Part shown: one piece after another, positions 2,078 to 4,819 of the stretch
How the letters are laid out: each line of letters begins with the position of its first letter
How positions within the stretch are numbered: position 1 is the first letter of the stretch
Sequence record: NC_073055.1
Length of the DNA: 44,488 bases
Direction: 5' to 3' (one strand)
Source of the DNA: Escherichia phage vB_EcoD_Opt212
Made by a program: the position numbers and the translations under genes
The notes under the pieces: model-generated
The model's database searches: none
Told to the model about the DNA's origin: nothing
The model's input: the letters and a program-made list of their open reading frames with translations, nothing else

Positions 2078-3220
2078 TTACTTCAACATTTCCGGGCTAA
2101 TGGTTAAGCGCGCTACTTCGCCGTAGTTGGCGCTATAGGTGATGACGTTTGCGCTGCGACCGGACATCCAACCGCCACGACTGGCGTAGGCGTCTTTCGC
2201 TGCGAGCGTCCGGTGCTGTTCAACAATCATGTTGCGGGATTCTACAATCTTCTGGTGGTGCAAGTGGCCTACGTGCGCGTAGCTGTACTCACTGGATCCG
2301 AAAGCCTGTCTGAATTTAGAAATCATAACCTGCTCGATAGCATCGAATCGCGCTTTGTGCCCGTGGTGGAAGAATAGCGTGGTCTTACCGTGCTGCACCA
2401 TTTTGTAGACGTCCGGGGACGTATCCACATCGACGCGCGGCTCGTTCTCGTACAGAGTATTGAACATCTCAGCCAGCCAAATCATACCCGACTCGTCATG
2501 ATTTCCCTGGACGATTAGCAGTTTGACTTTGTGGTGTTTTTGCAGCGCCAGTTCGACGACGTTGCGCACCATGCGAATCATGTATCGGACCAGTTTCTGG
2601 TATCGGGTGTCGGCGTCCAGTATGTGACCACTTGCCGGAGTGACAGCATCGAGGCTATCAAAGTGCGCCATATCACCGAGGATATTAATTACGGCAGTGC
2701 CTGCGTCCGGGGCGCGTGCGAAGGCTTCGACAAACCAGCGGTAGAACAGGTCTTCGGCGATCGCCATATCCCAGTCTTCGCCAGTCTCCTCGCCCCATGC
2801 CAACATGCCCAGGTGGAAGTCTGACACGGTGTACAGGTTGAGCAAGTCGAGCGCCTGGATCGGTACTGGCGGGGCTTTTACTGGCGCTGCCGGTGTGATT
2901 TCGCTGTTCATACCCTCGACAACAGCGCGCATGGCTTCGAGTTGGCGCTCTTTGTCCTGCTCAGTGATGACCCACGACATGACCTCTTCGCCATTGCCGC
3001 GCACCAGGGCCGATACGCGCTTAACCCCAAACCCATCGGCAACGCGCTTGCGTATTACGGCATCGTTGCCGTGTCCAATGCCTTTTTTCGACAGGCGGGC
3101 TTTCCGCATATAAACATTGCGTAGGGCAATCCCGTATTTCTTCGCAATATCTTTAACCGTAGTCCCTGCCTGAATTTCTGCGATCAATTGCTCATCGGTA
3201 ATTTTAGTTTGCGGGTGCAT
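2078..3220 (-). CDS. HTH domain fused to calcineurin-like metallophosphoesterase
   Basis: 380 aa; N-terminal HTH-like segment (TVKDIAKKYGIALRNV); phosphoesterase motifs SDFHLG, GDMAHFD, GNHDE, HHGH, GHLHH. Confidence 0.7.
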   Translation of the reverse strand: MHPQTKITDEQLIAEIQAGTTVKDIAKKYGIALRNVYMRKARLSKKGIGHGNDAVIRKRVADGFGVKRVSALVRGNGEEVMSWVITEQDKERQLEAMRAVVEGMNSEITPAAPVKAPPVPIQALDLLNLYTVSDFHLGMLAWGEETGEDWDMAIAEDLFYRWFVEAFARAPDAGTAVINILGDMAHFDSLDAVTPASGHILDADTRYQKLVRYMIRMVRNVVELALQKHHKVKLLIVQGNHDESGMIWLAEMFNTLYENEPRVDVDTSPDVYKMVQHGKTTLFFHHGHKARFDAIEQVMISKFRQAFGSSEYSYAHVGHLHHQKIVESRNMIVEQHRTLAAKDAYASRGGWMSGRSANVITYSANYGEVARLTISPEMLK

Positions 3221-3281
3221 ATTTAATTAATTCCTGATTAGTGGACCGTGGACAATATACCACGGCCCACACTGCGGTGCG

Positions 3282-3455
3282 CTATGAGTTGTCTTGCTGT
3301 TTAAATTCCGCCATCACGCGACGGAACTCACCCATAACTTTTCCTTGCTCTTTCTTTGTCAGGAACGAAAGACCCCGGAAGAATGACGCCTCCATTTGGG
3401 AGGCCCGCGGTCGTTCCGCCATAGGGCGGGAATCGCGTTGCGGTTTAAATGCCAT
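3282..3455 (-). CDS. small hypothetical protein (57 aa)
   Basis: ATG preceded by GAGGTGA; not in ORF track (below length cutoff); translated by hand. Confidence 0.3.
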   Translation of the reverse strand: MAFKPQRDSRPMAERPRASQMEASFFRGLSFLTKKEQGKVMGEFRRVMAEFKQQDNS

Positions 3456-3596
3456 AAGTCACCTCACAAATTACCATTCCAATAAATGCCGCGGCGGACC
3501 AGATTGCCAATACCCAAATATCATTACGTGCCATAGTGTAATACTCCTCTTGTTGATTGGTCGCAGTATGGCGCCTATGTTGGTTGCAAGTCAAGC

Positions 3597-3624
3597 AATA
3601 AAAAGCCCGGAATTAACCGGGCTT
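3597..3624 (-). terminator. rho-independent terminator after lysis cassette
   Basis: stem GCCCGG/CCGGGC followed by U-run on minus strand, directly after stop at 3631. Confidence 0.5.
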
Positions 3625-3630
3625 GGCAGT

Positions 3631-3792
3631 TTACACTTCTGGATCTTCCGGCGGTGGCGGACTCGGCAGCTTCGCGTCAAATACGCCAGCATGACTGATA
3701 GTGTCCGCGATAATGGCGCGAGCGCCTGGGTCTTCGGTTTTAGCCAGCGCGGCGAGCGCGTCCGCATTATGATCAAGAATACTTTTTAACAT
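3631..3792 (-). CDS. small hypothetical protein (53 aa)
   Basis: ATG with GGAGACAC RBS 17 nt after endolysin stop; Pro-rich C-terminus; same frame as track ORF 3631..4029. Confidence 0.35.
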   Translation of the reverse strand: MLKSILDHNADALAALAKTEDPGARAIIADTISHAGVFDAKLPSPPPPEDPEV

Positions 3793-3808
3793 ACTGTGTC
3801 TCCTCGTA

Positions 3809-4300
3809 TTATGCGGCGTTTCGCCCGATTTTCTCGGCAACGTCCCACTGCTTACCATCAAATAGTGCCTGCCTGCCGATTGCACGACGGACAAGCCCCT
3901 TGAGCACTGCCCCGCCTTGCTTGCGGAATTGTGGCAGCGTAGCACGGACCTTTGCCCAGTCACCCAGGCGGATCGCATCGTCGAAGTCTCCGGCGACGTC
4001 GTCCGGCATGATCGGACCAGGACCGGCATTGATAACCAGGTCCACCAGCGCGTCGAATTGCGCCTGGTTGATGCTCGGGTGTGCGTACTTGTTTACCCAG
4101 TTCTCGGCATACGCCACGTCGCGCTTGAGTAGCTCCAGTGCTTCCGCACGGGTAATGCTCCGCGGCGGATTAGTGCCGGTGTGACCATAGCCCCAGGTAT
4201 ACAGGCCGCGGGCCTGCTCTTTCTTAGTCGCGAAATACGGCACTGGGCTGAATTGCTCCCATGCTGCCGTAAATCTCAGACCGTTGTCACTGAATCGCAT
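3809..4300 (-). CDS. endolysin (GH24 lysozyme-like)
   Basis: 163 aa; GYGHTG and surrounding motifs typical of phage T4/lambda-type lysozyme; downstream of two membrane proteins. Confidence 0.8.
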   Translation of the reverse strand: MRFSDNGLRFTAAWEQFSPVPYFATKKEQARGLYTWGYGHTGTNPPRSITRAEALELLKRDVAYAENWVNKYAHPSINQAQFDALVDLVINAGPGPIMPDDVAGDFDDAIRLGDWAKVRATLPQFRKQGGAVLKGLVRRAIGRQALFDGKQWDVAEKIGRNAA

Positions 4301-4532
4301 GTTTTACCCCATTCAAAACAGCATTACGCAGTGTGCGCAATGCAAACAGCCAGATTAACGCGGTCCAGGTGGTGTCAGATACGTCTCCGGTTTGCAACAG
4401 TCCGATAATGCAGACCATCGCCGTAAGCAGATATAACACCCGACCGAAGAAGCCATCCTGGACGGACGGCGCATACACGTTAAACAGGGACGAAGCCCCT
4501 ATGATAACAAACAACAGGACGGAGATAATCAT
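4287..4532 (-). CDS. holin/antiholin-like membrane protein
   Basis: 81 aa, two hydrophobic segments, overlaps endolysin start. Confidence 0.5.
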   Translation of the reverse strand: MIISVLLFVIIGASSLFNVYAPSVQDGFFGRVLYLLTAMVCIIGLLQTGDVSDTTWTALIWLFALRTLRNAVLNGVKHAIQ

Positions 4533-4819
4533 TTTGCGCCACCCGGAAGTCGGAACGACTCAATAGTCTCCCTGATCCGGGCGGCTATTGGCATCCAGAA
4601 GATTGCAGTTACGAAGCCCAAACCGGCGACAGTGCGCTCGCCAGATAAGCCAGCCCACTCGGCGATAGCTGGCGCACCAAATATGGCACACAGGAAGCCA
4701 ACTACGACATATAAAACGAAGTTCAACGGCCCTTTCGTTGCCTCGCCATGAATGCGTGCGCCTACGAAGCCACCAGCAAGACACGCAAGGGCGAATAACC
4801 ACTCGTTTAGCTTATCCAT
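4529..4819 (-). CDS. holin-like membrane protein
   Basis: 96 aa, multiple predicted TM segments, ATGA overlap with next gene. Confidence 0.5.
   Translation of the reverse strand: MDKLNEWLFALACLAGGFVGARIHGEATKGPLNFVLYVVVGFLCAIFGAPAIAEWAGLSGERTVAGLGFVTAIFWMPIAARIRETIESFRLPGGAK

Follow-up and report, generated by a model that had tools for sequence, protein, structure and literature searches.

A conserved 29-codon reading frame as the candidate lead gene of an accessory unit in Escherichia phage vB_EcoD_Opt212 and related Dhillonviruses

Regulatory membrane peptides of the KdpF, PmrR, MgrB, AcrZ and MgtS type are presumed to act by binding a larger membrane protein via their transmembrane (TM) helix, and the type I toxins TisB and ShoB comprise 29 and 26 amino acids (aa), respectively. 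On the side of genome organization, Juhala, Hendrix and colleagues reportedly described the morons of lambdoid phages as independent promoter-gene-terminator units located between conserved genes. Here, an open reading frame (ORF) of 29 codons in Escherichia phage vB_EcoD_Opt212 (NC_073055.1), an HK578-like virulent siphophage of the genus Dhillonvirus, was analysed together with its surroundings; the whole stretch of 44,488 nucleotides (nt) is referred to as the window, and the relevant genes are located on its minus strand. The ORF is interpreted, with a probability of about 60%, as the constant first cistron of a dispensable, self-promoted moron-like accessory unit that encodes a single-pass inner-membrane peptide. 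The unit lies between the lysis-cassette terminator and the phosphoesterase-terminase operon of Dhillonviruses.

With the bacterial single-helix regulatory peptides KdpF, PmrR, MgrB, AcrZ and MgtS (reviewed in PMC12648545), the Opt212 peptide shares the size class and the architecture, and its conserved small-xxx-small pattern (A15...G19) suits helix packing. There is no sequence relationship to these peptides, and the Opt212 peptide is phage-encoded. A literature search yielded no description of the small ORFs of this locus. Two published candidates were rejected: the Dhillonvirus anti-Tmn gene (PMC11846954) is ORF35, a different and larger protein, and the 'unique gene of intergeneric origin' (PMC11430396) concerns a tail fibre.

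The 29-codon reading frame and its product

A first-pass annotation of the window, made from the sequence alone, had placed a terminator at about 3600, followed by a candidate promoter and a 29-codon ORF with the ribosome binding site AGAGGAG, the end of which overlaps the start of a 57-aa ORF (3282..3455). All of these elements were located:

3624..3603, minus strand: intrinsic terminator with an 8-bp stem, 6 GC pairs and a T-run; end of the lysis cassette and upstream boundary of the accessory unit
3594..3565, minus strand: candidate sigma-70 promoter P1, TTGACT-18-CATACT, with the -35 hexamer at 3594..3589 and the -10 hexamer at 3570..3565
3550..3544, minus strand: Shine-Dalgarno (SD) sequence AGAGGAG of the peptide ORF, 9 nt 5' of the ATG
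3534..3445, minus strand: 29-codon micropeptide ORF, MARNDIWVLAIWSAAAFIGMVICEVTYGI
3465..3459, minus strand: SD sequence GAGGTGA of the 57-aa ORF, within the final codons of the peptide ORF
3455..3282, minus strand: 57-codon ORF (MAFKPQRDSRP...), with its ATG 11 nt before the peptide stop (ATGGCATTTAA)

Both strands of the whole window were scanned for ORFs of 20-45 codons with an ATG start, a GGAG, GAGG or AGGA motif 5-16 nt upstream and an 18-residue Kyte-Doolittle (KD) window of at least 2.0. The ORF at 3534..3445 was the only one in the 44.5-kb window that combined start, SD sequence and hydrophobicity, and 50 composition-matched block shuffles yielded a mean of 0.06 such ORFs per shuffled window. 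Relatives were gathered via annotated phage records, the neighbouring phosphoesterase gene and a conserved motif outside the ORF, and with the phosphoesterase gene as anchor 149 related loci were retrieved (individual loci are cited by L numbers). A tblastn search with the peptide resulted in matches in 109 phage records, nearly all of them Dhillonviruses and mostly without an annotated feature. Among 12 distinct 75-nt ORF cores the minimum number of changes at codon positions 1, 2 and 3 was 6, 2 and 16 (chi-square p=0.0015), and the pooled Nei-Gojobori ratio of nonsynonymous to synonymous differences (pN/pS; 12 distinct sequences) was 0.14 in the peptide frame, whereas the two alternative frames gave 1.4 and 4.5. 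Moreover, 16 of the 29 residues, including W7, the helix core and C23-E24, are invariant among 11 protein variants, and the SD stretch GAGAGGAG is invariant among the relatives. Conservation of the frames in relatives had been proposed as a check by the first-pass annotation; it came out in favour of both ORFs, as the peptide frame is under purifying selection across the Dhillonviruses and counterparts of the 57-aa protein with 36-62% identity occur in phage families that are not related to each other.

That the ORF arose by chance in a conserved non-coding spacer and is not a gene is hardly credible. It is very short, unannotated in most records and lost in some relatives, as such a chance ORF would be, but the substitutions are frame-specific, the SD sequence is invariant and the expectation for the whole window is 0.06. 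The comparisons indicate that the 29-codon ORF is a genuine gene under purifying selection, which is retained in most phages of the genus; the 57-codon ORF is likewise taken to be a real gene.

The statement of the first-pass annotation that neither small ORF is contained in the ORF track is correct, but the two are not unknown as genes. In the GenBank/RefSeq record of Opt212 the peptide is deposited as the 49-aa gp05 starting at TTG 3594 and the 57-aa ORF as the hypothetical gp04, and the records of SSL-2009a and Shigella phage 1b annotate both small ORFs as hypothetical proteins. The TTG start of the deposited gp05 is the -35 hexamer of the candidate promoter P1, and in EK99P-1 the sequence upstream of the peptide is taken up by another gene in a different frame. 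Judged from these sequences, the true start of the peptide is ATG 3534 and the 49-aa start of gp05 is mis-annotated. The 26-aa peptide form of most Dhillonviruses was not found in the protein collection by exact look-up.

The N-terminal stretch of the peptide (MAR[N/K]D) is basic and leads into an 18-residue hydrophobic core from I6 to C23 with a mean KD value of 2.3; the Cys23-Glu24 pair is invariant, and there is almost no tail. In agreement with the hydrophobic peptide noted by the first-pass annotation, these are features of a single-pass membrane peptide, and a location in the inner membrane with the N-terminus inside is predicted, the topology being derived from the positive-inside rule. 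Neither the peptide nor the 57-aa protein belonged to a family in scans of Pfam, PHROGs and NCBIfam; for the peptide, no match at E<=1 was found in Pfam or PHROGs, and as it has a single hydrophobic segment it does not qualify as an Imm_superinfect (PF14373) protein.

The first-pass annotation had also suggested that such peptides can act as membrane-active regulators or toxins. In the latter case the peptide would be a type I toxin-like membrane poison of the TisB, Hok or Ibs kind which depolarises the host or serves as an addiction or abortive element. The size and hydrophobicity of the peptide fall in the TisB/ShoB range. However, none of the models of type I toxins, holins or small membrane proteins matched the peptide, neither Pfam nor NCBIfam contained a matching model for Hok, TisB, Ibs, Ldr or ShoB, and no cis-antisense candidate above chance was found: no antisense promoter is conserved, and the single plus-strand promoter-like site occurs at chance level inside the optional 57-aa ORF. 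Furthermore, the strong SD sequence and the unobstructed start are unlike those of tightly repressed type I toxins, and the phage is virulent and kills the host regardless. A toxin is thus considered very unlikely.

The accessory unit and its exchangeable cargo

The forms of the unit were defined as length classes of the interval from the lysis terminator to the phosphoesterase ATG. The neighbouring features of the window are:

4819..4529, minus strand: holin
4532..4287, minus strand: holin
4300..3809, minus strand: endolysin
3792..3631, minus strand: 53-aa ORF, last of the lysis cassette, phrog_11068
3268..3243, minus strand: conserved palindromic element and candidate promoter P2
3220..2078, minus strand: 380-aa protein with an N-terminal helix-turn-helix (HTH) and a calcineurin-like metallophosphoesterase part, phrog_704, 'DNA repair exonuclease'
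3' of the phosphoesterase gene, minus strand: TerS, then TerL

An interval of 96-98 nt with neither P1 nor the peptide was found in L012, L016 and L019, and also in L021. The majority form of 239 nt, e.g. in HK578-type phages and phage bob, contains P1 and a 26-aa peptide ending in ...CELI before the stop. Opt212 belongs to a class of 412-415 nt together with its close relative Oekolampad (Bas18), Shigella phage 1b, SSL-2009a and L014, in which the 57-aa ORF is added and the peptide ends in ...CEV[T/M]YG[I/F] before the stop. The peptide has alternative C-termini because the SD sequence of the 57-aa ORF lies inside its last codons; cargo-less genomes carry GAATTGATATAG at this position and the peptide then has the ...CELI end. 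In the form of 455 nt (EK99P-1, L020) a 75-aa ORF of phrog_16851 is located between the SD sequence and the peptide and overlaps the latter by 11 nt. A different 56-aa cargo behind an identical GAGGTGA...ATGGC junction is present in L080, KarlBarth and WF5505. In WF5505 it is followed by an annotated unit terminator and then by the phosphoesterase gene, and in L080 and the cultured phage KarlBarth (variant locus L178, NC_073057 42432..43104) by a 70-aa ORF (phrog_20931), a terminator and TerS without a phosphoesterase gene. Because it is absent from KarlBarth and L080, the 'DNA repair exonuclease' phosphoesterase itself is, on this comparison, dispensable in the genus Dhillonvirus.

In Sodalis phage SO-1 and in L086 internal deletions have removed most of the helix or TM segment. 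As the unit is absent in some close relatives and broken by deletions in SO-1 and L086, it is regarded as dispensable, and the genome comparison indicates that promoter and peptide are one indel unit with a constant lead gene and exchangeable overlapping cargo. The dispensability of the unit and the very different distributions of the two small ORFs, one a constant lead gene and the other a rare mobile cargo, go beyond the first-pass annotation.

As to the sites of these rearrangements, the deletion in SO-1 (L009:2001-2096) lies between direct repeats CCGCCGC and leads to read-through of the palindrome and a 31-aa product, and that in L086 lies between repeats ATTTGG(G)TATT. The cassette junctions share a pattern in which the upstream ORF ends 11 nt past the next ATG within TATGGCAnnTAA; the junction from the 75-aa ORF to the peptide is CACTATGGCACGTAA (L005:1888-1898) and that from the peptide to the 57-aa ORF is CTTATGGCATTTAA (3445..3455). 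This pattern may represent microhomology used in cassette swapping.

The unit shares with phage morons its presence in some genomes and clean absence from collinear close relatives, the promoter-like element, the terminator upstream, the dispensability and the small accessory genes. It differs in that Opt212 is virulent, so that there is no lysogen to benefit, and in its unusual internal logic of a constant micro-gene with exchangeable coupled cargo. In addition, no conserved closing terminator was found between 3282 and 3220 in the window, whereas the WF5505 and L080/KarlBarth variants have one of their own. The terminator at the upstream boundary consists of the arms AAGCCCGG and CCGGGCTT, the loop TTAATT and a T-run; every Dhillonvirus locus retains the stem, with some variation in both stem and loop, and the element is annotated as a terminator in WF5505. 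A further terminator-like hairpin, GCCTCCCAAATGGAGGC, inside the 57-aa ORF (3404..3388) was rejected; its 5' arm is not conserved in Shigella phage 1b or SSL-2009a and it is probably fortuitous.

The hexamers of P1 are fixed in 16 distinct relatives (-10 hexamer CATACT or TATACT) and the spacer adjoining the -10 hexamer is free to vary, which is the pattern expected of a working promoter and suggests transcription from P1. In L012, L016 and L019, P1 is deleted along with the peptide ORF. The second candidate, P2, is an extended -10 element TGgTATATT (TGnTATATT) at 3262..3254 inside an imperfect palindrome (3243..3268), which has the composition GGGCCGTGG-TATATTGT-CCACGGTCC with GGGCCGTGG and CCACGGTCC as arms. 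Its core GTG[GA]TATATTG is retained even in genomes without P1 and the peptide. The palindrome folds stably in the window (-22 kcal/mol, z = -3.1), but an interpretation as an RNA hairpin was rejected since changes of the 3' arm in relatives are uncompensated. It is probably a DNA signal, i.e. an extended -10 promoter and perhaps also an operator, of the phosphoesterase-TerS-TerL operon. If P2 is the own promoter of this operon, the unit upstream would be a separate insertion.

The overlapping arrangement of the genes raises the question of whether the 29-codon ORF might be a leader or upstream ORF, the translation of which matters for ribosome hand-over or for opening RNA structure while its product does not. 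Every cargo gene starts 8-11 nt before the peptide stop behind the shared GAGGTGA...ATGGC junction, the 75-aa ORF before the peptide in EK99P-1 likewise overlaps the peptide ORF by 11 nt, and the analogous micro-ORF of T1-like phages (see below) is tightly coupled on both sides. On the other hand, residues are conserved and not just the open frame (pN/pS 0.14, 16 invariant residues), the hydrophobicity is kept at TM grade, and in the commonest genome type (239 nt) nothing is coupled to the peptide, the next gene being located 62 nt away behind its own candidate promoter. An Rfam scan of 3000..3900 resulted only in a sub-threshold match to Trp_leader (23.1 bits compared to a gathering threshold of 41) at 3597..3697, which sits on the terminator and not on the ORF, so that an attenuation leader is not indicated. 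A function as a mere leader is therefore judged unlikely.

The 57-aa cargo is rare in Dhillonviruses and was found in Opt212, three other deposited phages and a few metagenomic contigs. It has clear homologues elsewhere, namely in the Pectobacterium podophages CB5, Clickz, Nobby and Khlen (54-60% identity), in the Pantoea siphophage Vid5 (gp76, 56-62% identity, as the N-terminal third of a 125-aa protein) and in Serratia phage JS26 (gp26, 36% identity). For this rare family tblastn E-values were 1e-12 to 1e-13. A profile search reached E-values down to 1e-42 and yielded 33 clusters, all hypothetical, and an exhaustive HMMER pass found 12 clusters (50% identity) among 1.84 billion representatives. 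The residues E22, L32, K34, Q37, G38, M41, G42 and R45 are invariant, and the extended, basic and proline-rich N-terminal motif M-x-F-K-P-x-R-D-S-R-P-M-x-E-R-P is nearly invariant through P11. The module is always N-terminal, either alone (57-69 aa) or fused to unrelated C-terminal parts (109-160 aa in total), and its start always overlaps an upstream gene. The fused C-terminal parts belong to no known family, and a match to the TPR protein P0038 was spurious. The members in Vid5, CB5 and JS26 are located in early or replication gene clusters, that of CB5 (gp25) between endonuclease and DNA polymerase genes, and are often fused, whereas the Opt212 ORF stands alone next to late genes. Across phage families the protein is conserved and the DNA is not; by this comparison the family is exchanged horizontally among unrelated phages, siphophages as well as podophages of different hosts. 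The AlphaFold2 (AF2) model of the basic, soluble 57-aa protein has a predicted local distance difference test (pLDDT) value of 84, with helices at 17-28 and 34-56 after the extended N-terminal motif, and a fold search against the PDB with this model yielded nothing below E=7. As a guess, the protein, with a net charge of about +5, could be a small host-factor- or nucleic-acid-binding module. A +1 frameshift (UUU UAA A in SSL-2009a-type sequences) by which peptide and 57-aa protein would be fused was also considered, but the window reads AUU UAA A at this site, and elsewhere the family occurs without the peptide.

The same slot in Jersey-like and T1-like phages

In Jersey-like relatives the phosphoesterase is about 75% identical and the slot 5' of it is occupied by one of two other genes. 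The first is a 59-72 aa protein with two TM helices, which matches Imm_superinfect PF14373 (E about 1e-13 to 1e-15) and phrog_1039 'immunity to superinfection' (L027:2250-2456, L052:2247-2426 and about 40 other loci); the second is a 108-aa signal-peptide protein of phrog_14165 (L026:1163-1489). The T4 Imm-like Imm_superinfect proteins and the Opt212 peptide have in common the slot 5' of an orthologous phosphoesterase gene and the nature of small inner-membrane proteins, as predicted for the peptide. They differ in that the former have two helices, 59-72 aa and an HK..L.IF..N...GW motif and the latter a single helix and 29 aa.

Of 80 sampled Drexlerviridae loci from T1-like phages, 75-77 (about 94%) contain a hydrophobic ORF of 22-29 aa that stops 1-17 nt short of the phosphoesterase ATG (L092:1432-1503, L094 ~1438-1509, L059:2402-2485, L078:2408-2488, L095-L174). 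In T1 this micro-ORF (MKLYFAVVLTPLISFSVMYFIIM; NC_005833 40740..40811) overlaps the ST17 stop (ATGA), and its own stop lies inside the ST16 SD sequence TAAGGA. It is unannotated in the T1 records and its 23-aa form was absent from the protein collection. For the two best-sampled sub-families pN/pS values of 0.18 and 0.34 were obtained in frame compared to 0.67-9.2 off frame. The consensus M[K/R]...P...(M/I)Y..(I/V)M includes a mid-helix Pro and a near-invariant Tyr four residues from the end. With the Dhillonvirus peptide the T1-like micro-ORFs share the size class, the basic N-terminus, one helix, almost no tail, the slot 5' of the phosphoesterase gene and purifying selection; they differ in having no promoter of their own, being coupled to both neighbours and following their own consensus. 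In Opt212 a small single-TM ORF is likewise located upstream of the phrog_704 gene, with the 57-aa cargo and the 62-nt spacer intervening. No homology between the Dhillonvirus and T1-like peptides was detected with profile hidden Markov models (HMMs; scores of -4 to -0.6 compared to a shuffle mean of -0.6 with a standard deviation of 2.4) or with hhalign (probability 0.2%). From the sequences compared, the T1-like micro-TM ORF is a positional analogue of the Dhillonvirus peptide without detectable homology. One T1-like lineage (L152, upstream of position 1201, and a duplicate of this locus) has an insertion at the micro-ORF site directly 5' of the phosphoesterase gene; the inserted ORF resembles an HNH endonuclease, and its frame continues across this site.

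The recurrence of a micro-ORF at this position could mean that the peptide is a functional partner, such as a membrane tether or regulator, of the HTH-metallophosphoesterase, and that both form an old two-gene module of HK578-like and T1-like phages, in which the peptide would depend on this enzyme for its activity. Consistent with this, the hydrophobic micro-ORF adjoins the phosphoesterase homologue in nearly all of the Drexlerviridae loci mentioned above under purifying selection, and both phage groups have orthologous phosphoesterases with 41-67% identity. TM peptides diverge fast: between the T1-type and MKSLIL-type peptides identity is about 48%, compared to 87% for the enzyme. Against such a partnership, KarlBarth and L080 keep P1 and the peptide without the phosphoesterase gene, the peptide is lacking in L012, L016, L019, L021 and all Jersey-like phages, in which the enzyme is present, and homology between the Dhillonvirus and T1-like peptides is not detectable. 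The Dhillonvirus genes are also uncoupled by the 62-nt gap with a candidate promoter, and no TM-fused phosphoesterase was present among the homologues listed, which are near relatives only, forms of 406-411 aa being explained by upstream start calls. The partnership is considered rather unlikely, and an equally modest weight is given to the more specific proposal that the Dhillonvirus and T1/Drexlerviridae peptides are one ancient micro-gene family, never annotated so far, which diverged beyond recognition and works with the adjacent HTH-metallophosphoesterase at the inner membrane. If the latter were true, classical phage T1 would gain a conserved gene, and its enigmatic 'DNA repair exonuclease' a function linked to the membrane. 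For the 380-aa phosphoesterase of Opt212 itself, the AF2 model was poor (pLDDT 48) and a PDB sequence search found designed repeat proteins only.

In the re-annotation of phage TLS (PMC11447400), which does not mention the micro-ORF, the phosphoesterase homologue gp66 immediately precedes the holin gp67. The peptide might be a lysis accessory that adjusts the timing of lysis from the membrane, either as a modulator of the holin or as an antiholin-like factor, since its ORF directly follows the holin-holin-endolysin cassette in Dhillonviruses, the lysis cassette of T1-like phages is immediately preceded by the micro-ORF and the phosphoesterase gene (gp66 before the holin gp67 in TLS, PMC11447400; ESP2949-1), and the peptide is, by prediction, embedded in the membrane as holins are. 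This is nevertheless quite doubtful, as a strong terminator separates the peptide ORF from the cassette, the peptide has its own candidate promoter, relatives that are viable in culture, SO-1 among them, lack it or carry a broken copy, none of the family HMMs for holins or antiholins matched it, and its 26-29 aa without a charged C-terminal tail are unlike known holins. Within the cassette, the counterparts of the 53-aa ORF (3631..3792) in SSL-2009a, HK578-type phages and KarlBarth are 133-137 aa long with an immunoglobulin (Ig)-like C-terminal part (L003:1102-1503; L178:912-1325). A spanin was neither annotated nor evident in the lysis cassettes of Opt212, SSL-2009a, HK578-type phages and KarlBarth.

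Proposed mode of action and implications

For the favoured interpretation of the ORF as first cistron of a moron-like accessory unit, we infer the following course from the arrangement of the locus. Host RNA polymerase would start at P1 (TTGACT-18-CATACT), and ribosomes would load at AGAGGAG and produce a peptide of 26-29 residues. The peptide would insert into the inner membrane as one helix, with a cytoplasmic N-terminus and Cys23-Glu24 at the periplasmic edge. Ribosomes ending at the peptide stop would re-initiate at the overlapping ATG of whichever cargo follows, in Opt212 that of the 57-aa ORF, so that the overlap of 11 nt, already seen in the first-pass annotation, would couple the two genes. 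Finally, the peptide may contact a membrane target via its helix and thereby act in conflicts among phages or between phage and host, and not in the core lytic cycle. A conflict function, i.e. superinfection exclusion or counter-defence, is favoured in view of the Imm_superinfect gene that fills this slot in Jersey-like relatives; it is suggested by analogy and tentatively given roughly one chance in three.

Several points weigh against this interpretation. The pN/pS estimate for the peptide frame is based on just 72 sites in 12 related sequences. P1 matches the consensus at 9 of 12 positions, and 2 such sites occur in the region compared to 1.2 expected. As the window contains no closing terminator, the late operon might simply begin with this unit. 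There is no homology to a characterised exclusion, anti-defence, holin or toxin protein, so that the role of the peptide has to be read from position and analogy. Lastly, the T1-like micro-TM ORF adjoining a homologous phosphoesterase gene could instead indicate a link with the enzyme.

Small phage membrane proteins in accessory units are already known as a kind of element, and no new kind of system is proposed; the family, the architecture and the T1-like analogue are undescribed. The ORF provides an example of a gene that is under selection but too short for the length limit of gene callers. At this locus, a recombination hot spot, a candidate promoter and a constant micro-gene are combined with coupled cargo that can be exchanged. 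Where exclusion or counter-defence functions are sought in therapy phages and in the BASEL collection, this slot is an obvious choice.

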